NCBI GenBank assembly: GCA_903842795.1
Contig: CAIMNJ010000018.1
Coordinates: forward strand, 67,246-131,245
Reading direction: 5' to 3'
DNA length: 64,000 nucleotides
Source of the DNA: an uncultured bacterium
GTDB lineage: Bacteria; Patescibacteriota; Microgenomatia; UBA1400; PJMF01
A program made the position numbers and the translations under genes. Under the pieces are notes generated by a model. It saw only the letters and a list, made by a program, of their open reading frames with translations, ran no database searches and had not been told where the DNA came from. Shown piece by piece: positions 13,704 through 62,035 of this stretch (positions are counted from its first letter, which is position 1; each line of letters begins with the position of its first letter).

Positions 13704-15890
13704 CTAACTCTGATCCTTACTCATCAAAAATTCTCTAATTTTGTTGTTATTGACGTCTCTTGGCTTGCTGCCATCTGGAGCACCCACTAGCCCAAGCTCA
13801 TAAAGCTGGTCCAGAATTCTGGCTGCGCGAGCATAACCAACCGACAAGCGACGTTGAATTAGTGAAGAAGAAGCCTTATCTGCAGTCAAGAAAAGTCTGG
13901 CTGCCTCTACACATTTATCATCAATATCATTTCCATTACTATCAGCACCCATACTACCTCCAGTCACTTTGCCAGCTTGATATTTACTGACAATATCAGC
14001 TTCATATTGAGGCTTCTGACCCTGAGACTTAATGAAATTAATTAAATCTTTGGCTTCTTGAGTACTAACGAAGGTGCCTTGAACACGAATTGGCTTGGGT
14101 TTATCTGGAGCTTGGAAAAGCATATCACCACGACCAAGTAGCTTTTCTGCCCCTGGACTATCCAAGATTACACGACTATCAGTCATAGAAGTAACGTTAA
14201 AAGCAATACGAGTTGGGATATTTGCCTTGATTAAACCAGTCAAAACATCTACTGAAGGACGCTGTGTAGCCAAAACTAGGTGGATGCCAACAGCACGAGC
14301 CATTTGAGCTATACGAGTTACACTATCCTCAACTTCGGCTGGAGCAAACAACATTACATCAGCTAATTCATCAATCACAATTACAATATTTGGCATTGTG
14401 GCTAAACCAGCTAATTCGTTGTATTCGCTAATAGTTTTGACTCCAACTTCCTGAAGCATCTTGTAACGGCTATCCATTGTGGCACATGCCCACTTAAGTG
14501 CTGAAACTACTTTGTCTGGTTCGGTAATTACTGGAGTAAGTAAATGTGGAATATTATCATAACCTGTTAATTCAACACGTTTTGGATCTACCAAAATCAA
14601 TTTCACTTCCTCTGGAGTGGCACGATAAAGAATTGAGCATAAAAACGAATTAACACAAACTGACTTACCAGAGCCAGTTGATCCAGCAATCAAAAGATGA
14701 GGCATTGAGGCAATATCTACCACAGAAGGATTGCCAGATACATCAATACCAAGCGCCACAGCTAATTTAGACTTATGTTTTTTCATTACTGGAGAAGACA
14801 ACATCGTCTTAAGAGTGACATATTCAGCACTACGATTTGGCACTTCTACACCAACCAAATTGCGACCAGGAATTGGTGCTTCAATACGAATTTGACCCGT
14901 TGGAGCAGAAAGAGCCAATGCTAAATCAGTTGATAAAGCCGTAATTTTAGCCAAGCGAGTACCAACCTTAATATCTAAAGCATATTGAGTTACTGCTGGA
15001 CCAGGATTATATTCAACTACCTTGGCACTAATACCAAAAGAATCAAGGGTATTTTCAATAATTGAAGCATTTCCTTTCACGTCACCACGATCGGCTTTGC
15101 CACCAGTTTTTTGCGAAAGCAAAGAAAGAGGCGGATATTCCCAAACCATTGGTACAGCAGAAGTATTTAGATTCTCAGGACCATTAAGATCCTGTGTATT
15201 GATATTGGAAGAGGTCTGTTTCTTAATTTCGTCCTCAATAATTGCCTTGGCTGAAGTAGTGTCTTGCTCAAGCTCTTTATTGAAAGAAGATCCTTGTTTT
15301 AATTCTCTATCCTTGCCAAAACCAAATGTTGGAATAGAGAAACCTTTAGCTTTATTGATTTCTTTTTCAGAAACTTGATCAGCAAAAATATCTTTATCAG
15401 CTTTCTTCTCTTTTTTCTTGAATAATTTAGCAATCAACTCAAAGAGCTCAATCAAAGAAGATTGAGAAAGAATTAAGAAACCAATTAAGAAAATTGCAGC
15501 AAAAAAGGCATAGGAACCTGGCTCTGTAAGAAGCCTACCAAAATTAAAAAAGACACTTTCACCCACTTGGCCACTTCTAGCAAAACCCATAGTACCAATC
15601 ATTAGTAAAATAGTTCCAAGTAAAATAGTGGGCTTGGACCAAGCGTGCTTGCTACGCAACATCACTAAACCTGCAGAAATAAAGACAAATGGCAAGTACA
15701 GCATGGCCAAGCCAAACTGCAAAGATAAAAAGTCATTAATAAAAACAAGCAACTGACCACGACCAGTAAAAGAAAGAATTACCAATAAACCCAACAACAT
15801 GAGAGAAACTGCCACAATTGAGTGACTAGTCTCCGCTCTCATTTTCAAACGAATTGCTTGTTTTTTTCTTCTACTCTTAGACTTAGCCAT
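13704..15890 (-). CDS. ftsK: DNA translocase FtsK/SpoIIIE
   Basis: N-terminal polytopic membrane domain, then a motor domain with Walker A LLIAGSTGSGKSVCVNS and Walker B VIVIDELAD. A C-terminal winged-helix gamma domain follows (SSLIQRRLSVGYARAARILDQLYELGLV). Confidence 0.93.
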   Translation of the reverse strand: MAKSKSRRKKQAIRLKMRAETSHSIVAVSLMLLGLLVILSFTGRGQLLVFINDFLSLQFGLAMLYLPFVFISAGLVMLRSKHAWSKPTILLGTILLMIGTMGFARSGQVGESVFFNFGRLLTEPGSYAFFAAIFLIGFLILSQSSLIELFELIAKLFKKKEKKADKDIFADQVSEKEINKAKGFSIPTFGFGKDRELKQGSSFNKELEQDTTSAKAIIEDEIKKQTSSNINTQDLNGPENLNTSAVPMVWEYPPLSLLSQKTGGKADRGDVKGNASIIENTLDSFGISAKVVEYNPGPAVTQYALDIKVGTRLAKITALSTDLALALSAPTGQIRIEAPIPGRNLVGVEVPNRSAEYVTLKTMLSSPVMKKHKSKLAVALGIDVSGNPSVVDIASMPHLLIAGSTGSGKSVCVNSFLCSILYRATPEEVKLILVDPKRVELTGYDNIPHLLTPVITEPDKVVSALKWACATMDSRYKMLQEVGVKTISEYNELAGLATMPNIVIVIDELADVMLFAPAEVEDSVTRIAQMARAVGIHLVLATQRPSVDVLTGLIKANIPTRIAFNVTSMTDSRVILDSPGAEKLLGRGDMLFQAPDKPKPIRVQGTFVSTQEAKDLINFIKSQGQKPQYEADIVSKYQAGKVTGGSMGADSNGNDIDDKCVEAARLFLTADKASSSLIQRRLSVGYARAARILDQLYELGLVGAPDGSKPRDVNNNKIREFLMSKDQS

Positions 15891-15996: not shown

Positions 15997-17658
15997 CTAC
16001 ATGTCCATGATAACTGGAACAATCATCGGCTCGCGCTGAATTACTTTATAGAGTTTTTTACCCAATCTACGCTCAATTTTTTTCTTGAGTTCATCATCCT
16101 TAAGATTTTGTTCTCCTTCGCTAATAATTTCAGCAGTTTTTTCCTTGATAAACTGCACCACTTCGTCAGCCTCTTTCATAAAAACAAAACCTCTGGAAAC
16201 AACTTTCATTTGCGCTAAATCAAAGTTGCCATCCACTTTTGGAATAACCAGAACAATAATGCCAGCCTTAGAAAGCGATAGACGATCAGAAAGAACTACT
16301 GGTCCAACATCACCGATGCCTAAACCATCAACTGCTTTGGCATTTAAAAGGACCTCATCTACTACCTTAACCCCAGTCTCATCAATACCTAGGACTTCGC
16401 CTGATTTTGGCAAAAGAACATGGCGATCATCATAGCCAGATTCGAAAGCAACAAGCTTTTTAAAAAGAGCGCGATGTCTGTCTGCGCCGCCAATTGGCAT
16501 CAAGTAAGTAGCATGCAAAGTTTCTACCACTTCCTTTTGTTCCAAAGCACTGGCATGACCAGAGGCGTGGATTTTGTGATTTATTTCTGGATAAACCACT
16601 TCCACTCCATTAGCTGAAAGCTCGTCAATGGCAGCGTAGTAATTAATTTCATTGCCAGGAATTACATTGGCAGAGAAAATCACCTTGTCTTCTGGAGTGA
16701 TCTGAATGACACGATGCTCGCCGTAAACGGCTCGCACCAAAGAAGATCCTTCCTGACCCTGACTGCCAGCAATAATCACACAAAGTTTACTATCTGGCAC
16801 TTCAGCAATATGATTTTTATCAACTTGCATACCAACTGGCACACGAAGTTTTTTGAGCAATGAGGCGGAAACAACATTCTGCTCTACACTACGCCCTACA
16901 AAAACCACTTGACGACCTAAACGCTCACAGGCATCCACCACCTGTTGGATACGATGAATATGAGAACTCATTAAGGTAACCAAAATCTTGCCTTTTACAT
17001 TAGTCATTTCTTGCTCAAGAGCAGGACCAACTGATGACTCTGATCTGGTCCAGGTGTCTTCTTCCACACGCAAAGAGTCAATCATGGCTAAAAGCACTCC
17101 TTCACCAGCTACTCTGCGCACTTCTTCAAGATCTGATAAAACTCCATCAACTGGTGATTTATCTAATTTGAAGTCACTACCATGGTAAATTTTGCCAACT
17201 GGAGTATCGATTACGACATGTTTTGTATCTGGTACAGAATGAGTCATGGCAATTAGTTCAAAAGAGAAATTATTGCTCAATTTTAAAACCTGTTTGTCTG
17301 GAACAACATTGACTTGACGTTCAATCTTTTTATCTGCCAATCGATCCTGAGCAAAACCAGCAGTTAGAGGTGAAGCATAAATTGGAAATTCTGGCAAATC
17401 TCCAAGCAAATAAGGTAAAGCACCAATATGGTCGTCGTGACCGTGACTCAAAATCATAGCAATAATTTTGGCCCCTGCTTGAACTTGATCTTGTAGATAG
17501 CTAATATCTGGGATCAAAGTATCAACTCCAGGCATATACATATCTGGAAAACCGATGCCACAATCAACGATTAAAATTTCGTTTTCATATTGATAAACAT
17601 ACATGTTTTGGGTAACACTACCCATGCCTCCTAAAGGTAAAAGTTTTAGTTTAGACAT
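15997..17658 (-). CDS. rnj: Ribonuclease J (metallo-beta-lactamase / beta-CASP)
   Basis: HxHxDH motif (LSHGHDDHIGALPYLL) plus beta-CASP and a C-terminal domain, 553 aa. Confidence 0.9.
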   Translation of the reverse strand: MSKLKLLPLGGMGSVTQNMYVYQYENEILIVDCGIGFPDMYMPGVDTLIPDISYLQDQVQAGAKIIAMILSHGHDDHIGALPYLLGDLPEFPIYASPLTAGFAQDRLADKKIERQVNVVPDKQVLKLSNNFSFELIAMTHSVPDTKHVVIDTPVGKIYHGSDFKLDKSPVDGVLSDLEEVRRVAGEGVLLAMIDSLRVEEDTWTRSESSVGPALEQEMTNVKGKILVTLMSSHIHRIQQVVDACERLGRQVVFVGRSVEQNVVSASLLKKLRVPVGMQVDKNHIAEVPDSKLCVIIAGSQGQEGSSLVRAVYGEHRVIQITPEDKVIFSANVIPGNEINYYAAIDELSANGVEVVYPEINHKIHASGHASALEQKEVVETLHATYLMPIGGADRHRALFKKLVAFESGYDDRHVLLPKSGEVLGIDETGVKVVDEVLLNAKAVDGLGIGDVGPVVLSDRLSLSKAGIIVLVIPKVDGNFDLAQMKVVSRGFVFMKEADEVVQFIKEKTAEIISEGEQNLKDDELKKKIERRLGKKLYKVIQREPMIVPVIMDM

Positions 17659-18492: not shown

Positions 18493-19125
18493 TTATAGCA
18501 ATGCCTCTCTAACAGTTTCTGTGAATTCCTCAGTAGCACTAGCTTTTTCTACCCAATTTACAATTTTTTCAATTTTGGAAAAATCTTTGACAAAAGACTC
18601 TTTAATTCTAGTAGCTCTAAGAGCAGCAGCAGGATGATACATGGGCAAAACAAACAAAGTTTGATTATTCCATTTGATTTTATGTAATCTGCCATGAACT
18701 TCTGAGACCTTTACATCTGGCAAAAATTTACCCATGCTAAAACGACCTAAAGTAACAATTAATTTTGGCTTGATTACTTGGATTTCTGCATCTAGATATG
18801 GTTTAAAAGCCAAAATTTCCTCTTGTAATGGATCACGATTGTCAGGTGGTCGAACTTTAACAATGTTGCTAATATAAACTTCTTTCTCTGATAAACCACT
18901 TTCTGCCAAAATTTTGCGCAAAAGTTGCCCAGAACGACCAACAAATGGCCTTCTTTGCACACTTTCATAATAACCAGGAGCTTCACCAATCAACATCACA
19001 CTAGCAGACTCATTCCCTTCACCATGCACAATGTCTTCAGGTTTTTCAACTAGAGGGAGATTTTGGAAGTTTTTTTCTAGATCTGCTTTGAGTGAGTTTA
19101 AATCAGTGAAATTCATTAAGTTCAT
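18493..19125 (-). CDS. Uracil-DNA glycosylase, family 4
   Basis: Motif A GEAPGYYESVQRRPFVGRSGQLL is the family 4/5 UDG signature (GE[AG]PG...PF.G..G). A C-terminal HPAA-like motif (YHPAAALR) is also present. Confidence 0.85.
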   Translation of the reverse strand: MNLMNFTDLNSLKADLEKNFQNLPLVEKPEDIVHGEGNESASVMLIGEAPGYYESVQRRPFVGRSGQLLRKILAESGLSEKEVYISNIVKVRPPDNRDPLQEEILAFKPYLDAEIQVIKPKLIVTLGRFSMGKFLPDVKVSEVHGRLHKIKWNNQTLFVLPMYHPAAALRATRIKESFVKDFSKIEKIVNWVEKASATEEFTETVREALL

Positions 19126-19142
19126 TATAGCAACAATTAGCT

Positions 19143-20201
19143 CTAGTAGGATGGCAAGAAAATCTTGTAATTATCTGGACCAATTTCTACCTTATCATAC
19201 TTGCCTTCCACAATAATACGTGCCGCCTTGCGAGCAGCTCCCTGAATAGTACGTTGCAAAGTACGAATACCAGCATCAAAACCAAGTGGACGAACCATTT
19301 TTTGCCACATTTCATCACGAATAATAAATTGTTCTGGTTTGAGACCAACTTCGGCCAAAACTTGAGGCATCACATATTTCTTGGCAATGGAAACTTTTTC
19401 CTCATCTGTATAAGACGGCATAGTAATCTTTTCCATACGATCCATGACAGCGGTGGCAATTTTGCGGGTATTATTGGCGGTTGCTAAAAAGATCGCTTGG
19501 GAAAGATCTATTGGATAATTAATATAGTCATCGGTAAAAGCATGATTTTGCGCTGGATCCAGCAACTCAACCAAAACACCCATGATGTCCATGTTAGCGT
19601 CATCGGCACTACGATCAATCTCATCAAGTAAAATGATCGGATTCATTACTCCAGCTTCACAAACTCCTTTGACTACTTTACCAGGCTCAGAACCAAGAAC
19701 TAAACGAGAATGACCTCTTAATTCTTTGGCACTGCCCATACCACCAAAAGGAATACGCACCAATTTACGACCAAGAGCCTCTGCTAAAGAGTAAGCAAAA
19801 GTTGTTTTACCGGTACCAACCAAGCCCACTAAAAGCAAAATTGGAGCATGAAAAGTTTCATCTTGTAAATTATTTTTTTGTAAATTTAAAACTGCTAAAT
19901 ATTCCAAAAAACGATCTTTGACCTCTTGCATGCCAAAATGATGTTGATCGAAAATTTCCTGAGCTTTAGGAATATCTAAAACGTCGTTTGATTTCTTTCC
20001 AAACGGCAAACGTAAGCACCAGTCAATATAATGAGAAACTTTCTCATATTTCTCATCATAACTACCAAGCTCGACACTACGCTCCAAAGCCACAATTTCT
20101 TTTTTGAGCTGATAGCGCATTTCCTCTGGCAATTCACCTTGTTCAACTTTAGCAGCCAAAGCAGCAATCTCTTGGTTGAGAATTTCGCGGAAATCTGACA
20201 T
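19143..20201 (-). CDS. Lon-like AAA+ ATPase lacking the protease domain
   Basis: 352-aa ORF. YIDWCLRLPFGKKSNDVLD, HFGMQEVKDRFLEYLAV, LLVGLVGTGKTTFAYSLAEALGRKLVRIPFGGMGSAKELRGHSRLVLGSEPGKVV and ILLDEIDR align block-for-block with the Lon A-domain (Walker A, Walker B, sensor). The ORF stops after the alpha-helical lid (…PDNYKIFLPSY) with no S16 peptidase Ser-Lys dyad. Confidence 0.75.
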   Translation of the reverse strand: MSDFREILNQEIAALAAKVEQGELPEEMRYQLKKEIVALERSVELGSYDEKYEKVSHYIDWCLRLPFGKKSNDVLDIPKAQEIFDQHHFGMQEVKDRFLEYLAVLNLQKNNLQDETFHAPILLLVGLVGTGKTTFAYSLAEALGRKLVRIPFGGMGSAKELRGHSRLVLGSEPGKVVKGVCEAGVMNPIILLDEIDRSADDANMDIMGVLVELLDPAQNHAFTDDYINYPIDLSQAIFLATANNTRKIATAVMDRMEKITMPSYTDEEKVSIAKKYVMPQVLAEVGLKPEQFIIRDEMWQKMVRPLGFDAGIRTLQRTIQGAARKAARIIVEGKYDKVEIGPDNYKIFLPSY

Positions 20202-20215
20202 AGGTTTATAAAAAA

Positions 20216-20725
20216 TTAATCCTTATATTTGACAGCCACACCAAGCCCAATTAAAAATAAGGCTAGAGCTGCACTTAAAAAGGTATTTTCCACAGTACCA
20301 GAAGCTGGCAAAGAGCTACCAGAAGAAGTGACCGTAGCTGTAGGTGTGGAAGTAGGGGTGGTAGTAGCAGAAGTAGAGCTAATGGTCAAAGTAAAATTCA
20401 AACTACTCTGACTAGCTGAACTGATGGTAACAGTGTGAGCACTATAAGTCAGATTGGAAAGATAGGTGGACCAATCACCAATAGAATTAGCAGTAGCTGA
20501 ATAAGTCACATCGTCAATCTTAACTGCCACAGAACTCGATGCATTGGCAGTACCATAAAGAGTAAATGACCTTAAAGGATAAGTGTAGGCGGAAACGGTT
20601 GAGCCAATTCCTTTGCCAGTTACATCGGTAGCACCAATCTTAGTGATTTCCATGGCGCTAGCGCCATCAACAAAAACTAAGAAAAAAACTGCAAAAAAAG
20701 ATAATAAATACAAAAGCCTTTTCAT
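20216..20725 (-). CDS. Secreted Ser/Thr-rich surface protein with an LPxTG-like (LPASG) cell-wall sorting signal
   Basis: Signal peptide (MKRLLYLLSFFAVFFLVFVDGASA) and a T/S-rich linker. The C-terminus is LPASG, then a hydrophobic helix (FLSAALALFLIGLGVAV), then KYKD, the canonical tripartite sortase substrate signal. Confidence 0.7.
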   Translation of the reverse strand: MKRLLYLLSFFAVFFLVFVDGASAMEITKIGATDVTGKGIGSTVSAYTYPLRSFTLYGTANASSSVAVKIDDVTYSATANSIGDWSTYLSNLTYSAHTVTISSASQSSLNFTLTISSTSATTTPTSTPTATVTSSGSSLPASGTVENTFLSAALALFLIGLGVAVKYKD

Positions 20726-20743: not shown

Positions 20744-21679
20744 CTAATTTTGGTGCTTTGTTAACTCTAAGATTTGCGCCTTACGCAATAAACCCAACTT
20801 AGCTCCAAAATAAGCAACAACATTTCCAGCGTTTTTAACTCCCCAAGCAATAGCAGTTGGGGTGTCATGCCCATAAAGAGTGGCTGCTACATAGGCAGCA
20901 GCAAAAGCATCACCAGCCCCAGTACTATCCACAAGAGTACTAGCTTCACCTTCAAATTCAAATTTCTTCTTACCAAAAAGATGAACTTCGCCACCTTTTT
21001 TCCCTTTAGTGATTACCACCTGTGGAAAGTTTAGTAGAATTTCTTCATGTAGAGGCTCAATCATGTCCCATTCTTCTTGATTCACGAAAAAAACTTCACA
21101 CGGAATTTGTTCAATGACAAACTCTTCATTAAGCAAAAGCTCCAATTCTTTTTTGCCAGGATTCCAAGAAAGCTTAGTTTCTTGATTACTACTTACCACT
21201 TTAAAAATTTTGGCCAAAGTTTCTTTGCGTCCGCCTATGCTAGAGAGATGAAGCCATCTGCTTTGCGATAACCAAAAAGCTGGCAAATCAAAAGGATCAA
21301 GCATCGAGGCGGCCCCACGATGCACCATAGCAACTCTTTCTGAATCTTTTGCTACTAGTACTACTGAGCCTCCAGTTTTTTCTAATTTTTCCTGTATCAG
21401 TAAATTTGTAGCTACACCTTCTTTTTGAAAATCAGCGTTAATTAAACTAGCAAACTCATCCCGACCAGTTTCAGAGATAACAGCAGTAGCAAAACCTAAG
21501 CGAGCAAACGATACAGCAGTGTTGCTTGCTCCACCACCAGTCACAATATGAAAATCTGACAATTCAAGTTTGTCGCCATAAGTCAAAATTTGGCGCTCGC
21601 CGTCACGATCAGCTTCCAAATCATTAGACTTGATAAAAATATCAAGCAAAGATGAGCCGATAGAAATTACATCGTACAT
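20744..21679 (-). CDS. PfkB-family carbohydrate kinase (ribokinase-like)
   Basis: N-terminal GG motif (VTGGGASNTAVSFARLG) and C-terminal anion-hole/ATP motif DSTGAGDAFAAAYVAATLYG. Confidence 0.85.
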   Translation of the reverse strand: MYDVISIGSSLLDIFIKSNDLEADRDGERQILTYGDKLELSDFHIVTGGGASNTAVSFARLGFATAVISETGRDEFASLINADFQKEGVATNLLIQEKLEKTGGSVVLVAKDSERVAMVHRGAASMLDPFDLPAFWLSQSRWLHLSSIGGRKETLAKIFKVVSSNQETKLSWNPGKKELELLLNEEFVIEQIPCEVFFVNQEEWDMIEPLHEEILLNFPQVVITKGKKGGEVHLFGKKKFEFEGEASTLVDSTGAGDAFAAAYVAATLYGHDTPTAIAWGVKNAGNVVAYFGAKLGLLRKAQILELTKHQN

Positions 21680-21714
21680 ATGGGCAGACTTTCTTCTCTA
21701 TCTTAACGTGAAAG

Positions 21715-22335
21715 CTAAACTGATTTCAAGCGACGCGCAGCCATTTCTTCATCAAAAATGCGCAAAGCAATCTTAAATTCCTCTAGGTTTTCAACAATAC
21801 GATAAACTTGAGCTTCCTTATAGCCAATCATAAAATTCTTGTGCACTACATCCATAAATTCATGCCAAAACTTACCATAAAGAATCATTGGTTTGTGATT
21901 GCCATAATATAAATGCGCCAAAAGCCAAGCAGTGGCCCATTCACTCAAAGTGCCGGTGCCACCCTTAAAACACACAAAGAGATCAGCGTTATCCATCAAG
22001 CCAAACATGCGCTCAATATAGTTGGCAGTTTTAATTTCTTTGTCAGCAACATTGAGCTCATCACGACCTTCAAATTCTGGCAAGTCTTGTGGATAAAAAG
22101 TAACAACCAAAGTTTTACCACCGGCAGACTCAGCTCCATTGGTGGCAGCACGCATAATTCCAGGACCGCCGCCGTCAATTACCATTTTGCCTCTTTTGGC
22201 AACATGTTTGGCAGCTTGGTAAGCTTCGTCGTAAGCTGGATCAGTTTCGTCTAGATCAGCACTACCATAGAAAGCAATTTTCTCAATTCTAAGAAGGCGA
22301 TTGGCCTTAGGAACAACAACTTTTTTATTTGACAT
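21715..22335 (-). CDS. LOG-family protein (TIGR00730, cytokinin riboside 5'-monophosphate phosphoribohydrolase-like Rossmann fold)
   Basis: GGGPGIMRA and the PGGTGTLSE-like motif (FKGGTGTLSEWATAW). The start is set at the internal MSNKKVVV (22335), which reduces the overlap with rpe. Confidence 0.75.
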   Translation of the reverse strand: MSNKKVVVPKANRLLRIEKIAFYGSADLDETDPAYDEAYQAAKHVAKRGKMVIDGGGPGIMRAATNGAESAGGKTLVVTFYPQDLPEFEGRDELNVADKEIKTANYIERMFGLMDNADLFVCFKGGTGTLSEWATAWLLAHLYYGNHKPMILYGKFWHEFMDVVHKNFMIGYKEAQVYRIVENLEEFKIALRIFDEEMAARRLKSV

Positions 22336-22990
22336 GGGACAGAAATTCCTCCACAGCTTGTTTGTAATTACTTGCTTTATTAAAAGCGGAATTAACAGTA
22401 ACACCATGAATTCCACTGTTTTGCAAAGTTTCAATATTATCTAAATTAACACCACCATCGATAAAAATACGCATTGGCTCACCAGTAGCAATTTTTGCTC
22501 TAACTTCTTTGATTTTTTCCAAAAGCAATGGATTCTGCACTTGTCCAGAAGCTCCAGCTTCAACACCCATTAATAGAATTGCATCCATCCAATCCCAACT
22601 ATTTTCATCAATAGCCTCAATTGGCGTGTAGAGATCTAAGGCTAAACCAGCTTTCCAATCTTGCTTTTTGACTTCTTCCAGAAAAGCTTCCTGATAAGAC
22701 ATTTTTTCAATTTGACCGTAAACGGCTCTAATTGGTAAATGACGGCAATATTCTTCCATTTCCCAGACATAATCCATCGGTTCTTCCGTCATTAAATGAA
22801 AATCGATTTGCAATTGACCAAAATCGACATCCACTAAGTCTTGTGGAGTAAAAGTATGCACATCGGCAAAAAGACCATCAACTATATCTATCTGAATTGC
22901 CTCTAAACCACTATCTTTAGCTAACTCAATTTGTTTTTTTGCTAAATCAAGATTGCCAGTAAATACATTAGCACTAACATCTAAATTCAT
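22325..22990 (-). CDS. rpe: Ribulose-phosphate 3-epimerase-like TIM-barrel protein
   Basis: IDIVDGLFADVHTFTP (compare RPE HxDxMDGxFVPN), a C-terminal IDGGVNLDNI, and adjacency to rpiB (4-nt overlap). The assignment is by motif similarity plus context. Confidence 0.6.
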   Translation of the reverse strand: MNLDVSANVFTGNLDLAKKQIELAKDSGLEAIQIDIVDGLFADVHTFTPQDLVDVDFGQLQIDFHLMTEEPMDYVWEMEEYCRHLPIRAVYGQIEKMSYQEAFLEEVKKQDWKAGLALDLYTPIEAIDENSWDWMDAILLMGVEAGASGQVQNPLLLEKIKEVRAKIATGEPMRIFIDGGVNLDNIETLQNSGIHGVTVNSAFNKASNYKQAVEEFLSHVK

Positions 22991-23439
22991 GATTGTTCCT
23001 CGTAATTACTAATTTGTTGCAATCTTCTAAAATGTCTTTCACTCTCATCAATTGGTGTTTGCATGAAAATCTCAAATAACTTAATCATTTCTGATAAAGA
23101 TAAATAATCACCACTAAAAGCAATTATATTGGCATGATTATGACTTTTGGCGTGAGCAGCAATCTTTTCGTTATAAATTTCCACAGCTCTAATCCCTTTG
23201 ACTTTGTTGGCTGCAATCACCATTCCAGAACCAGAACGGCACAATAAAATTCCTAGATCTTGCTCTGACTGAACTTTGCTGGCCACCTGCAAAGCAAAAT
23301 TAGGATAGTCATCCTCTGAATCAAGTGTTAAAGCACCGCAGTCTTCTACTTCCAATTCGAGATGATTGCTTGCCAAATAATTCTTGAATTCTTCTTTTAG
23401 CTTAAAGCCACCGTGATCACTACCTAGATAAATTTTCAT
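22987..23439 (-). CDS. rpiB: Ribose-5-phosphate isomerase B (RpiB/LacAB family)
   Basis: MKIYLGSDHGGFKLKEEF...GILLCRSGSGMVIAANKVKGIRAV, the RpiB signature including the catalytic Cys region. Confidence 0.88.
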   Translation of the reverse strand: MKIYLGSDHGGFKLKEEFKNYLASNHLELEVEDCGALTLDSEDDYPNFALQVASKVQSEQDLGILLCRSGSGMVIAANKVKGIRAVEIYNEKIAAHAKSHNHANIIAFSGDYLSLSEMIKLFEIFMQTPIDESERHFRRLQQISNYEEQS

Positions 23440-28463: not shown

Positions 28464-30866
28464 TTAATATCTTCTGTCGCCGCGATCTCCACCACGGTCA
28501 CCACCTCTTCCACCAAAGGAAGGACGGCGGTCGTAACCACCTCTATTGCCGCGATCTCCACGATCTCCGCCAAAGCGGCGACCACCACCAAAACCACCTC
28601 TGTCACCACCGCGACCGCGACCATTATCATCGCTTTCGCCACGAGCAGCCTTGGCAGCTTTAGCAGCTTCTTCTTGTTCTTTAGTGAGCATAGTCAAAGC
28701 AATCTTACCTTCTGGGTTGTATTCTTTGACACGAACATGAACAATGTCGCCAACTTTGTAAAGATCGTTAGCATCTTTGACATATTCGGTGGACATATTG
28801 GAAACATGCACTAGGCCTTCACGACCTGGTAAGAATTCGACAAAAGCACCATAACCCTCAACACGAGTAATACTGCCGTCAAATTCGTCATCGACTTTGA
28901 CTTCTCTGGTAATATCTTCAATCATCTTGACTGCACGATCAATCGCAGCTTGGTCTGGAGAAGAAACATTGATGACACCAGTTTTATTTTCTTTGTCTTC
29001 CTCAACATTCACTTCGGCACCAGATTTCTCGATAATATCTTTGATTACTGAGCCACCAGAACCGATGACGGCGCCAATTTTCTCAGCTGGAATAACCACT
29101 TGAGCTACTTTTGGAGCATATTGGCTCAAAGCAGTTCTTGGTTCGCTAATACATTTCATCATTTCACCCATGATATGCAATCTGCCTTCAAGAGCTTGAC
29201 CAAGAGCTTTGACCAAAACTTCTTTTGGAATACCTTTGAGCTTAATATCCATCTGGATAGCAGTGATACCTTCTTTGGTACCAGCCACTTTGAAATCCAT
29301 ATCACCAACATGATCTTCCAAACCTTGAATATCTGACAAAACAACAAATTTCTCACCATCAGACATTAAACCCATAGCAATACCTGCAACTGGTTTCTTA
29401 AGAGGTACACCAGCAGCCATCAAAGCCATAGTAGAGCCACAGACAGAAGCCTGAGAAGTTGAACCATTAGAACTCATAATGTTACTGACCACATGAATGG
29501 TGTATGGAAATTCTGCTTGATTTGGCACCATTGGCAAAAGGGCGCGCTCAGCCAAAGCACCATGACCAATTTCACGTCTCTTTGGATAACCAATACGTCC
29601 AGCTTCACCAGAAGCATATGGAGGCATATCGTAGTGGTGGAAATAGTGACGAGTTTGTTCACCAGCCATATCCTCCACTAATTGACCAAGAGATGGATCA
29701 CCAAGAGTGACCACGGTTAAAGCTTGAGTGGCTCCACGTTTAAACATTGCACTACCATGAACTCTAGGGAGCAAATCAACTTCACACCAGATTGGTCTGA
29801 TTTCAGTGGTTTTACGGCCATCTGGACGGATACCGTCTTCAAGAATCATACGACGAGCTTCAGCTTTCATTAAATCGTGGAAAATGCTGTTTAGCATACC
29901 TTCATTTAATTCACTAACTTCACCCTCAGCTAATTTGGCAGTATCTTCGGCCAAAATTTGAGCAATTAAGTCACTTAAACCAGTTGACTCAAGACGACCT
30001 TCTTTATTAACCATGTCGTTGATTTGAGTTTTGTAAGTACTGACCAAACGATCAACAATTGTTTGCTTAGCAGCAACTTTTTCTGGATCTTCTGCATCGA
30101 CCAAGACAAGCTTCTCTTTGCCAATTTCGGCAGCTACGGCCTCAATTTGTTCACAAATTTTGGTAGCCTCATCTTGAGCTCTAAGTAAAGCCTCAATCAT
30201 GATTTCTTCAGCAACCTCATTGGCTCCAGCCTCCACCATCACGATGGAATTCTTTGAAGCGGACACGATCAAATCAAGATCATTACCTTCGGTCTGACTA
30301 CGCAAAGGATTAATGATGAATTGTTTATTTTCATCCAAACCAAGACGCATGCCAGCAACTGGACCATCAAATGGAATATCTGAAATTTGTAAAGCAATAG
30401 CAGTGCTAAGCAAAGCGATCATATCTGGCTCATTCTCGCCATCATAAGATAGAACTGTACTGATTACCTGTACTTCATTGGTAATGCCATCTGGGAAAAG
30501 TGGGCGCATGGTGCGATCGATAACACGAGCACGAAGCACACTATCATCAGTGGGACGACCATCACGCTTGACCCAGCGAGAACCTTTGATGATGCCGCCA
30601 GCGAAAAGTTTTTCCACAAATTCAACTGACAATGGGAAATAGCCAAGATTGACTTTTCTGCCCAAAGCGACAGTGGTGTGAACAATTGTTTCACCACAAG
30701 TGGCCAAAACAGCGGCGCTGACCTGTTCACTAAATTTTCCTACTTCAAGATGAATGACTTTGTCACCCACCACAATATCTTTCTTATAAGTATTTCCATA
30801 CTTTGGATAAGACATATTTTTCTTTCTTGCCTCGCGATCTGCGCGAGAACATTTTTGGAAATTCAA
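28464..30866 (-). CDS. pnp: Polyribonucleotide nucleotidyltransferase (PNPase) with an RGG/RGD-rich C-terminal extension
   Basis: Two RNase PH domains, KH (GSGGSVIKDIIEKSGAEV) and S1 (GYGAFVEF...GLVHVS). An additional ~60-aa tail is rich in RGG, GDRG and GGDRGG repeats. Confidence 0.95.
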   Translation of the reverse strand: MNFQKCSRADREARKKNMSYPKYGNTYKKDIVVGDKVIHLEVGKFSEQVSAAVLATCGETIVHTTVALGRKVNLGYFPLSVEFVEKLFAGGIIKGSRWVKRDGRPTDDSVLRARVIDRTMRPLFPDGITNEVQVISTVLSYDGENEPDMIALLSTAIALQISDIPFDGPVAGMRLGLDENKQFIINPLRSQTEGNDLDLIVSASKNSIVMVEAGANEVAEEIMIEALLRAQDEATKICEQIEAVAAEIGKEKLVLVDAEDPEKVAAKQTIVDRLVSTYKTQINDMVNKEGRLESTGLSDLIAQILAEDTAKLAEGEVSELNEGMLNSIFHDLMKAEARRMILEDGIRPDGRKTTEIRPIWCEVDLLPRVHGSAMFKRGATQALTVVTLGDPSLGQLVEDMAGEQTRHYFHHYDMPPYASGEAGRIGYPKRREIGHGALAERALLPMVPNQAEFPYTIHVVSNIMSSNGSTSQASVCGSTMALMAAGVPLKKPVAGIAMGLMSDGEKFVVLSDIQGLEDHVGDMDFKVAGTKEGITAIQMDIKLKGIPKEVLVKALGQALEGRLHIMGEMMKCISEPRTALSQYAPKVAQVVIPAEKIGAVIGSGGSVIKDIIEKSGAEVNVEEDKENKTGVINVSSPDQAAIDRAVKMIEDITREVKVDDEFDGSITRVEGYGAFVEFLPGREGLVHVSNMSTEYVKDANDLYKVGDIVHVRVKEYNPEGKIALTMLTKEQEEAAKAAKAARGESDDNGRGRGGDRGGFGGGRRFGGDRGDRGNRGGYDRRPSFGGRGGDRGGDRGDRRY

Positions 30867-52391: not shown

Positions 52392-52883
52392 TTACTGTTT
52401 TAATTTTTTCTCACCTTTTTGAAGAATAATAAAATCAGTTTTTTTCTTGACCTCTTCCACACTTTTGCTAATTTGTTCAAGTTGTTTATAAATTTTTTCC
52501 CATTCGTAGTTGTCTCTTTTGCGGTGCAATTGAACAACCAAACTTCCAATAATACTACTCGTCATAACCACACCGATTAACTGCAAAATAATTCCGAGCA
52601 CACGCCCTTCAAGAGTTACTGGCACCACATCTCCATAACCTACAGAAGTAATAGTCGAAACCATCCACCACATTGAATCATTTAAATTATGAATTTTAGC
52701 GTTTGGCTTACCAGATTCTAAAGGCACAACTAAAATGGCAAAAGACAACGATAAGAAAAACAAAGACAACAAAATTTTTCGAAGTGTACGTTGACGAAAT
52801 AGTTGGGCAAGAATATTTCTCACACTGAAATTATACAGCTTTGGCTTTTGGCATGTCCATGAGTTTGGAGAACTCATCGGCAT
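52392..52883 (-). CDS. Two-TM potassium channel (KcsA-like pore)
   Basis: Selectivity filter TITSVGYGDVVP flanked by two TM helices. The annotated ATG start overlaps the ftsH 3' end by 52 nt; an alternative GTG near 52823 would remove the overlap. Confidence 0.75.
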   Translation of the reverse strand: MPMSSPNSWTCQKPKLYNFSVRNILAQLFRQRTLRKILLSLFFLSLSFAILVVPLESGKPNAKIHNLNDSMWWMVSTITSVGYGDVVPVTLEGRVLGIILQLIGVVMTSSIIGSLVVQLHRKRDNYEWEKIYKQLEQISKSVEEVKKKTDFIILQKGEKKLKQ

Positions 52884-54765
52884 CTAAAGTTTCTCTTTCC
52901 AAAAGGTTTTCGGCCACTTTCACTAAACTTGATTTATGTTTGGTGAGTAAACTCATAGCACGTTCCTCAGCTTCATGAATGTAATTCATCATTTCTTCAT
53001 CAACTTTTTCTTGAACTTTGAGAGATGGACGATCAGGCTCTCCCCAAGCTCGATTGTAATCTTGGTCTTCGTATTGAGAACCAAAATTCATTGGCCCAAG
53101 TTTGCTCATACCATAATGAGCAACCATACTGCGAGCAATCCTAGTAGCGCGATCAATATCATTGCTGGCACCAGCAGTTTGCTCATTAAAAATCAGCATT
53201 TCTGCTGCACGACCACCAAGCATAACAGTCATGTCATCCAACAATTCAGACTTGAGTACTTGCAGTTTGTCTTTTTCTGGAGGAGTGAAAGTATAGCCAA
53301 GGGCTTGTCCTCTGGAAACAATTGAGATACGGTGAACTGGATCAGCATATGGCAAAATATGAGCCAAAACCGCATGTCCAGCTTCATGGTAGGCGGTCAT
53401 TTTCTTCTCTTCATCATCTTGCAAGCGTTTCTTGCTTGGACCATATTTAACCTTAAGAGAAGCTTCTTCAATATCCTCCAAAGTCACCTCATCACGACTC
53501 TCGCGAGCAATAGCAATAGCAGCTTCATTGAGCATGTTTTCCAAATCAGCACCAGAAAAACCTACTGTTCTCTTGGCAACTTTTTCCCAATTTAAATCTT
53601 TGGAAAAGACTTTATTCTTAGCATGAATACTTAAAATAAACTTACGCTCTTCTAAATCTGGCAAATTAACTTGCACACGACGATCAAAACGACCTGGACG
53701 AACAAGAGCTGGATCAAGCATATCGCCACGATTGGTAGCAGCCATAACGATCACGTTATCATTTTGAGTGAAACCATCCATTTCCACTAGAATCTGATTA
53801 AGAGTTTGTTCTCTCTCATCGTGAGAAGACATACTGTTGCGACCTCTCATACGACCAATGGCATCAATTTCATCAATAAAAATAATAGATGGAGCAATCT
53901 TTTTAGCGGTATCAAAAAGATCACGTACACGTGAAGCACCGACACCAACCAACATCTCCATAAATTCACTACCAGCAATTGAAAGAAACTGCACACCAGC
54001 TTCTCCAGCCACAGCACGAGCTAATAAAGTTTTACCTGTTCCAGCTGGACCAACTAATAAAACACCCTTGGGAGTGCGAGCTCCAACTCTAGTATATTTT
54101 TTTGGATTACGTAAGAAATCAACAATTTCCTCTAGTTCTTTCTTGGCTTCATTCATACCACCAACATCCTTGAAACTAGTGTTTTGTTTGCCTTTAACAA
54201 AAACTTTGGCCTTGCTCTTACCCATGCCAAACATTGCATCACCGCCACCTTTAGCTTGTTTGAAAACAACCATCAAGAAGACAAACATTAAAATAATTGG
54301 CAAAAAGTTGATAACCAATTCCCAAAGCATTTGTAAAAAGGTGGCATCATGAATTTGTGTATCTACGGCAGTTAAATCAATACCGGCGGCATTGAGAACC
54401 TGCAGAGCTTGCTGTCCTTCTTCTTTTTTGGCAATTTTTTTAGAATCATCCTTATAAGTGAGACGCAATTCTTGCCCATAAACTTCCATTTTGCTAACTT
54501 TTTGGGCGCGAATATCAGTCACCATTTGACTCATGGTGATTTGTTCACGACCTTTGCCAGCACCAATGGCTCCAAATAAAGAAGGTACGAACAAAAATAA
54601 GATTATTAAATAAACCAAGGTCTTACTGAAAAATTTATTTAGATTAATTTTTAATTCAATACGTTTGTAGGAAGTATTTGGCTTAGAAACTGGTTTTTGC
54701 TCAGTCTTTGCCGAATCAATTTTAGTTTCTTTATTTTCTTTGACTTCTTTTTTTTTGTCGTTCAT
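52831..54765 (-). CDS. ftsH: ATP-dependent zinc metalloprotease FtsH
   Basis: Two N-terminal TM helices, AAA Walker A GPAGTGKT and SRH, and the zinc site HEAGHA. Confidence 0.97.

Positions 54766-60388: not shown

Positions 60389-62035
<1,647 letters not shown>

Follow-up and report, generated by a model that had tools for sequence, protein, structure and literature searches.

A Lon-type AAA+ module without a protease domain in a Microgenomates genome

Can the Lon motor be of use to a cell without the protease to which it is joined? In Lon, the textbook example, an AAA+ motor and its protease share a single chain, and to our knowledge its natural variants (LonB, LonC and LonBA) all retain the protease. 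The question is raised by a stretch of 64,000 nucleotides (nt) on contig CAIMNJ010000018.1 of an uncultured bacterium, which was analysed at its full length and is called the window here. At 19143..20201 on its minus strand, where the genes and features of the window that are given below with coordinates lie, it holds a complete gene (ATG at 20201, TAG at 19143-19145) for a LonA-type AAA+ ATPase of 352 amino acids (aa). We regard it as nearly certain that the product is a Lon-type AAA+ module with neither protease nor N-domain. It is a real and conserved Lon variant, with an architecture that is surprising for Lon specialists. As to its function, we lean towards a stand-alone, non-degradative remodeller derived from Lon, functional and with a re-tuned pore, as the best reading overall.

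Domain architecture and integrity of the gene

What does the protein share with LonA, and where does it stop? A first-pass annotation of the window had described a Lon A-domain with Walker A and B motifs and lid, no S16 peptidase and a UDG gene next to it, and Pfam and alignments with LonA bear this out. Two Pfam families match above their cutoffs, AAA (PF00004, E 6e-17, residues 122-260) and Lon_lid (PF22667, E 6e-10, residues 284-335), and the same scan of the 352-aa protein returned neither Lon_C, the S16 domain (PF05362), nor LON_substr_bdg (PF02190). Residues 11-336 align with positions 253-570 of the 795 in the NCBIfam model TIGR00763, 'endopeptidase La', at 320.7 bits, about half of the LonA equivalog cutoff of 608; NF008053 gave 238 bits against 891, and none of the curated NCBIfam models reached its cutoff with the ATPase. 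The nearest solved structures are all LonA, with B. subtilis 3m6a matching over residues 10-348 (E 5e-72) and further matches to M. taiwanensis, E. coli, Y. pestis and human LONP1. The span matched is residues ~250-580 of LonA, at 36-44% identity over ~330 residues, and comprises the N-terminal bundle, the AAA+ alpha/beta domain and the Lon lid common to both proteins. The ATPase ends in the linker that precedes the start of the Ser-Lys S16 peptidase of LonA; LonA's N-terminal region, ~245 residues made up of the LON N-domain and a coiled coil, is absent as well, which the first-pass annotation had not mentioned. No hydrophobic segment was detected. With respect to the S16 domain, the N-domain, the pore-loop tyrosine considered below and the curated score, the sequence places the protein outside LonA.

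The fold and the N-terminal bundle were confirmed with an AlphaFold2 (AF2) model of the monomer, which was used for these two purposes only; it was built on 12 close sequences and has a mean predicted local distance difference test (pLDDT) score of 70 and a template modelling (TM) score of about 0.45 to LonA chains. The model has helices at residues 2-21, 26-45 and 49-64 and, after these, an alpha/beta domain with a helical lid, and when it was compared with the PDB by Foldseek every top match was a LonA AAA+ module (probability 1.00). Residues 1-65 (20007..20201) form a three-helix bundle according to the model and the LonA alignment. This region aligns with residues 8-~65 of the B. subtilis Lon construct and with E. 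coli Lon from ~249, and equals LonA helices alpha8-alpha10, described as 'NTD3H', the C-terminal part of the HI(CC) domain (PMC6722904). The Lon-type lid, the small alpha-helical domain found by Pfam, occupies residues ~265-340 (19182..19409).

Is the gene a broken LonA? The stop codon of its upstream neighbour lies 14 nt before the ATPase start, and 17 nt separate the ATPase stop from the start of UDG (spacer at 19126..19142, not assigned to a strand, read from the sequence), so neither flank has room for a lost domain. The annotation had said that an in-frame continuation into a peptidase, or a peptidase reading frame missed next to the gene, would overturn its description; neither was found, as judged from the 17-nt spacer and from tblastn. 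The tblastn queries were the C-terminal 230 residues, that is S16, and the N-terminal regions of 40 full-length LonA representatives, and the targets were the 64-kb window and, in addition, 91 related loci that reach up to 10 kb to each side of the gene and together amount to 1.06 Mb. Across these targets neither an S16 domain nor an S16-like coding remnant, frameshifted or otherwise, turned up in any frame; the sole matches were to the AAA/lid region of the ATPase itself, from two queries (P0207 and P0222) that overlap that region. The gene tables of two further loci from Dojkabacteria (L092 and L093) listed no S16 peptidase.

The boundaries of the gene are, moreover, those of a family: more than 230 homologues share them. 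The 120 closest protein clusters, at 69-93% identity, are 325-368 aa long, almost all 351-355 aa, and contain AAA and Lon_lid only. Start and stop positions are the same, and internal stops absent, in 12 of the 12 homologues checked, and an identical protein is encoded on three other, independent contigs. Past the query end there is no extension in the Microgenomates subfamily and a median of 5 residues in the Dojkabacteria one. The gene is under strong purifying selection, with a ratio of nonsynonymous to synonymous substitution rates (dN/dS) of 0.03-0.06 against homologues of 88-93% amino acid identity (dN 0.05-0.09; dS 1.1-2.7, near saturation). No other gene of the block is conserved as well: between the same pairs of genomes the ATPase reaches a median identity of 69%, while RNase J, FtsK and UDG reach 58-60% and PfkB 47%.

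Databases name the family 'AAA family ATPase' (NCBI pipeline) or 'Lon protease' (pipeline of the Joint Genome Institute, JGI, and one NCBI submitter), and the second name could hint at a truncated call, that is, at a pseudogene, a truncated Lon remnant, or a sequencing or assembly artefact hiding a peptidase domain. Such an explanation is refuted by the fixed length, start and stop, by the low dN/dS and by catalytic residues that are conserved without exception (see below), and it also runs against the identical protein on independent contigs, the abutting neighbours and the lack of any peptidase remnant in the window and the 91 loci. We give it a negligible probability, and the pseudogenised Lon put forward in the first-pass annotation falls with it.

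Relatives, ATPase residues and pore loops

How far does this architecture extend? In a search of 1.84 billion representatives clustered at 50% identity, further protease-less forms appeared at 39-55% identity, some of 351-380 aa and others with low-complexity N-terminal extensions, and all protease-less forms from this search end at the same boundary. Ordinary LonA proteins (740-900 aa) rank next, at 36-44% identity. A neighbor-joining tree over 340 shared columns splits 24 protease-less proteins from 65 LonA representatives with a bootstrap of 100/100, and the mean distance within the protease-less clade (0.85) is as large as that across LonA (0.80). The tree indicates that the protease-less clade is old and branched from LonA. 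Named members of the subfamily to which the window protein belongs come from Candidatus Microgenomatus, Pacebacteria, Woesebacteria and the 'Patescibacteria group'. The sister subfamily is that of Dojkabacteria/WS6, in which Lon_C is absent from 120 of 120 proteins among the matches listed (366-632 aa). The nearest named full-length LonAs are from Negativicutes, Clostridiales and Deinococcus, none of them from Patescibacteria. The full-text literature searched held no account of a protease-less LonA-type ATPase, nor of Lon in these phyla, and the family is apparently undescribed so far.

Two side observations concern the members themselves. Low-complexity extensions rich in Pro, Gln, Thr and Ser, up to ~330 aa long, are found at the N-terminus among P0132, P0133, P0138, P0141, P0145 and P0155, and P0155 has a low-complexity extension of ~200 aa at its C-terminus; the Microgenomates subfamily has no such extensions. 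Many loci with synteny of the Patescibacteria type (L014, L018-L021, L054, L058, L076, L083 and others) carry implausible record titles, such as 'uncultured Pseudomonadales', 'Vitreimonas', 'Methylococcaceae' and 'Limisphaerales', and the taxon labels of such records are therefore not trustworthy. CP011212.1, titled 'TM6 bacterium GW2011_GWF2_28_16', is one of them; its locus has a guanine-cytosine content of 37%.

Does the module still look like a working ATPase? The residues that act on ATP are the same as in LonA, and each was invariant in 248 of 248 members. They are Lys132 of the Walker A motif (G126-LVGTGKT-133, 19803..19826), Asp193 and Glu194 of Walker B (IILLDEID, residues 189-196, 19614..19637), the sensor-1 Asn243 (19473-19475), the arginine finger Arg255 in a DRME motif (19437-19439) and the sensor-2 Arg313 in GIRTLQR (19263-19265). 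Their counterparts in E. coli Lon (EcLon) are Lys362, the Walker B residues 419-424, Asn473, Arg484 and Arg542 (PMC6722904). Every residue for ATP binding and hydrolysis is retained, and a catalytically competent ATPase is predicted. An arginine finger works across subunit interfaces, so its invariance argues for an oligomeric, hydrolysing enzyme.

Around these fixed points several LonA hallmarks have changed. The Walker A motif reads GPPG(VGKT) in LonA and G-L/V-x-G across the clade, with the Pro-Pro pair replaced; in the window protein it is GLVG. In the lid, the LonA motif Y-T-R-E-A-G-V-R before sensor-2 has become L-G-(F/Y)-D-A-G-I-R. The changes reach the pore as well. Pore-loop 1 spans residues 163-174 of the window protein (GHSRLVLGSEPG, 19680..19715; LonA counterpart GHRRTYIGAMPG), and the LonA stretch DE-x-E-I-R-G-H-R-R-T-Y-phi-G in which it lies is among four clusters of LonA-invariant positions that are lost. 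Its tyrosine, present in 65 of 65 LonA representatives, corresponds to Val168. Among 120 Microgenomates-type members the position is Leu in 87, Ile in 18 and Val in 10, within a conserved S-R-L-x-L-G-S/A-E-P-G; the LonA motif HRRTY-I-G has thus turned into xSR-L-[L/I/V]-L-G, followed by a conserved glutamate. This residue, E172, is specific to the clade and is Met in LonA. Of the 118 Dojkabacteria-type members, 56 have Phe and 19 have Tyr at the tyrosine position, in the context S-K/R-A-F/Y-L-D-A-E-P-G.

Pore-loop 2, compared residue by residue with M. taiwanensis Lon (MtaLon, 7p6u), has diverged as well. The region covers residues 197-209 (RSADDANMDIMGV, 19575..19613). LonA has K..D(F/W)RGDP..A here; the window protein reads D-A-N-M-D-I where LonA reads D-W-R-G-D-P, the LonA aromatic residue aligns with A202, and the GDP motif has lost its Gly and its Pro, which are 98% conserved in LonA, throughout the clade, while its Asp (D205) is largely kept. 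In MtaLonA, Tyr397 of pore-loop 1 and Trp431 of pore-loop 2 touch the translocating substrate and are needed for degradation (PMC8503904).

Has the pore decayed, or has it been rebuilt? The loops are conserved within subfamilies, mostly hydrophobic and unlike those of LonA, a pattern that points to re-specification rather than decay, and conservation of the new loop within a subfamily implies that it still matters. An earlier view of ours, 'dead pore loops, no threading', had been drawn from 24 sequences and was softened when 248 sequences showed a conserved loop that is aliphatic in the subfamily of the window protein and has Phe or Tyr in 64% of the Dojkabacteria-type members. The dedicated unfoldase or disaggregase named by the first-pass annotation survives as the most plausible class of function, in a changed form: since Leu, Ile or Val has replaced the pore-loop tyrosine, the protein would not be a standard threading motor of the LonA type.

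Could the ATPase still feed a peptidase in trans? The annotation had also raised the possibility of a split Lon, in which the ring would dock on an S16 or other peptidase encoded elsewhere in the genome. AAA+ proteases made of two components, ClpXP and HslUV among them, are common, the ATPase ends at the LonA linker between AAA and protease, and a C-terminal tail, N-x-K-I-F-[L/M]-P-x-[Y/F], is conserved in the subfamily and could serve as a docking element. That tail, however, is not conserved between subfamilies. A split enzyme normally has its genes side by side in some lineages at least, yet no S16 domain lies in the window or next to the gene in the 93 loci examined by tblastn (91) or gene table (2), which include members down to 38% identity. 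The loss of HRRTY-x-G and, in pore-loop 2, of the aromatic residue, the Gly and the Pro, which make up the LonA pore signature, is unexpected for a motor that feeds a protease. We find no support for a split Lon and consider it quite improbable.

Candidate mode of action and comparison with known motors

If the protein feeds no protease, what might it do? We tentatively propose, as one possibility, that it acts as a non-degradative remodeller, an unfoldase or chaperone. The subunits would assemble into a hexameric ring or spiral like that of LonA, which would cycle and hydrolyse ATP and use its axial face to engage proteins. As the ring has no chamber under it, an engaged client would be released rather than cut, and the role would be that of an unfoldase, a chaperone or a factor that takes complexes apart. 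With its aliphatic tip, the pore is predicted to grip less firmly than that of LonA; such a grip would suit loosely folded or partly unfolded clients and would be less suited to the processive unfolding of stable domains. There is a precedent for assembly: the fragment EcLon(235-584), which also lacks the protease, is packed in its crystals as an open helical hexamer (PMC6722904).

Several points weigh against this proposal. The protease domain stabilises LonA hexamers and is missing here, so that a stable ring is not assured. The aliphatic or polar pore tip may mean that nothing is threaded and that the protein is an ATP-dependent switch or scaffold instead. Phe or Tyr is kept at the critical position in 64% of the Dojkabacteria-type members, and the idea of a weak grip may not cover the whole clade; in several deep branches the position is polar, for example in SRVRPDAE and SKANPDAE. 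The AF2 model, with its mean pLDDT of 70 from 12 sequences, is of moderate quality only.

A near counterpart of the window protein is the EcLon fragment itself (235-584, 6N2I), which binds ADP (PMC6722904) and is nearly co-terminal with it (query 11-348 on chain 10-338). That fragment is a laboratory truncation with LonA pore loops; the window protein is natural and under selection, and its pore loops are re-specified. LonC, for example from Meiothermus taiwanensis, is likewise a relative of Lon in which only one of the coupled activities is left, and it has been reported to work as a chaperone (PMC3391209, PMC13069640). It is a mirror image: LonC kept the protease and lost the ATPase, and the family described here has an apparently competent ATPase and lost the protease. 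LonB and LonBA also lack the large N-domain of LonA; LonB, however, has a transmembrane insertion in its AAA+ domain and an S16 domain, neither of which is present in the window protein, and the latter clusters with LonA-type modules. The same concept is known from other AAA+ families, where protease motors serve as non-degradative remodellers or import motors: ClpX without ClpP in yeast mitochondria (Mcx1) and the chloroplast FtsHi. Mcx1 keeps canonical aromatic pore loops. We know of no protease-free motor derived from Lon, and the literature searched held no example of one.

The search of representatives also returned many proteins of 900-1700 aa in which two or three tandem Lon AAA+ modules (AAA plus Lon_lid) precede a single Lon_C, without a LON N-domain (P0121-P0127, P0129, P0134, P0137, P0139 and others, all from outside the window). 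Such a layout would amount to a 'stacked-ring' Lon; P0121, which has three modules, is annotated as Candidatus Dependentiae. Kinship of the ATPase with these tandem proteins was considered and rejected, as most of their modules have an aromatic residue in pore-loop 1 and they are less similar to the ATPase than ordinary LonA is.

Why would a lineage part with the protease of Lon? We put forward, as a conjecture we hold with reserve, that Microgenomates and Dojkabacteria lack a Lon protease altogether and that their common ancestor stripped LonA down to an essential 'unfoldase-only Lon' with a re-tuned pore and kept FtsH as its main or only AAA+ protease. If this is true, such a Lon would be the natural mirror image of the ATPase-dead LonC. 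The family itself, old, widespread and strongly constrained, has kept the motor alone, with all its ATPase residues and with rewritten loops for gripping substrate, and it shows that selection can act on the Lon motor for work beyond feeding its own protease. It also offers a natural system in which to study how a Lon ring without protease and N-domain assembles, how it grips and what the pore-loop tyrosine does, and it bears on protein quality control in ultra-small Patescibacteria with their minimal toolkit. There is a practical side too: because these proteins carry the label 'ATP-dependent Lon protease' from the JGI pipeline and from some submitters, metabolic reconstructions may credit the organisms with a protease that they may not have.

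Genomic neighbourhood

Does the company that the gene keeps reveal its function? The window is a collinear housekeeping region. The UDG superfamily gene (18493..19125; Pfam PF03167, E 1e-33) follows the ATPase gene, with RNase J (15997-17658) and FtsK (13704-15890) beyond it; on the other side lie a gene for a secreted protein of 169 aa (20216-20725) and those for RpiB, Rpe, LOG and PfkB (20744-23439), then PNPase (28464-30866), IF-2 (34514-36016) and NusA (36020-37360), so that a long block on the minus strand extends over 13704-37360. RpoB and AlaRS are also present. FtsH, on which the first-pass annotation had supposed the organism might rely, is indeed encoded in the window (52831..54765, AAA plus Peptidase_M41), as are DnaK (39137-41059) and GroEL (60389-62020); the organism therefore has the main chaperones and one or more genuine AAA+ proteases.

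Within the subfamily of the window protein, most of the 91 related loci have these genes on one strand, arranged as LOG - PfkB - (small secreted protein) - LonAAA - (UDG) - RNase J - FtsK, LonAAA being the ATPase gene, and the part LOG-PfkB-LonAAA-RNase J-FtsK is kept across Microgenomates, with LonAAA at ~69% identity. Of the 86 loci with sufficient sequence downstream, 68 have UDG after the ATPase gene, mostly at a gap of less than 100 nt, and 18 have none. More distant homologues keep parts of the arrangement: next to P0143 (42% identity) there is UDG, with an overlap of 4 nt, next to P0128 (55% identity) RNase J, and 3.5 kb downstream of P0160 (39% identity) FtsK. The two Dojkabacteria genomes have another neighbourhood, without the Microgenomates gene order.

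Such an order could be taken to mean that the ATPase does not thread proteins at all and is a switch or scaffold, possibly linked to nucleic acid, in which ATP regulates or assembles partners such as UDG, RNase J, FtsK functions or FtsH. The pore is compatible with this, given that several deep branches have a polar or charged residue in place of the tyrosine and that LonA-invariant residues near the pore loops are relaxed, and LonA itself binds DNA (PMC11719849). Dojkabacteria, on the other hand, lack this synteny, and in the window it sits inside a long collinear block of housekeeping genes, so that we read it mainly as inherited gene order, and UDG is missing from the 18 loci just mentioned. 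Functional coupling deduced from synteny was set aside for the same reason, the block being kept in Microgenomates and not in Dojkabacteria; as a link of the ATPase to UDG the gene order is at most a weak hint. The chemistry of the protein also speaks against a nucleic-acid role: net charge and isoelectric point (pI) are as in the AAA+ modules of LonA (median pI 6.1 vs 6.2), which led us to reject a DNA-binding specialisation, and the conserved glutamate E172 beside the pore is unfavourable for nucleic acid. That pore-loop 1 is conserved and hydrophobic within each large subfamily suggests contact with something. We think a non-threading switch or scaffold rather unlikely.

A defence-system ATPase (BrxL and the like) was considered and rejected, since PADLOC gave weak, generic AAA+ matches (the best to DolB, 36 bits) and the context is one of housekeeping genes.

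The envelope proteins that the first-pass annotation had noted near the gene are real, though they say little. The upstream 169-aa protein is Ser/Thr-rich, with a signal-like N-terminus and an LPxTG-like, sortase-type tail (LPASG, a hydrophobic stretch and KYKD); Gram_pos_anchor scores 18.8 bits, just under its cutoff of 20. Its gene is detectable by tblastn in about a quarter of the related loci, and in some others a small unannotated open reading frame occupies its position. Two genes downstream of the ATPase, a 248-aa membrane protein with about 5-6 hydrophobic segments is detectable in 6 of the 91 loci. Being so poorly conserved, these neighbours carry no information on the function of the ATPase.

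Two minor observations concern other genes. In both Dojkabacteria loci a cluster resembling type-IV secretion genes (VirB4/TraG-like ATPase, TraC-like and PrgI-like) recurs a few kb from the ATPase gene on the opposite strand (L092, 9187-15317; L093, 10578-14716), with no evident link to the ATPase. In the window, the LOG-like reading frame at 21715-22434 (239 aa, TTG start) overlaps the ribulose-phosphate 3-epimerase frame at 22325-22990 by 110 nt; LOG homologues are 211-249 aa long, and the true LOG start may therefore lie further in, perhaps at the Met of 'MSNKKVV'.

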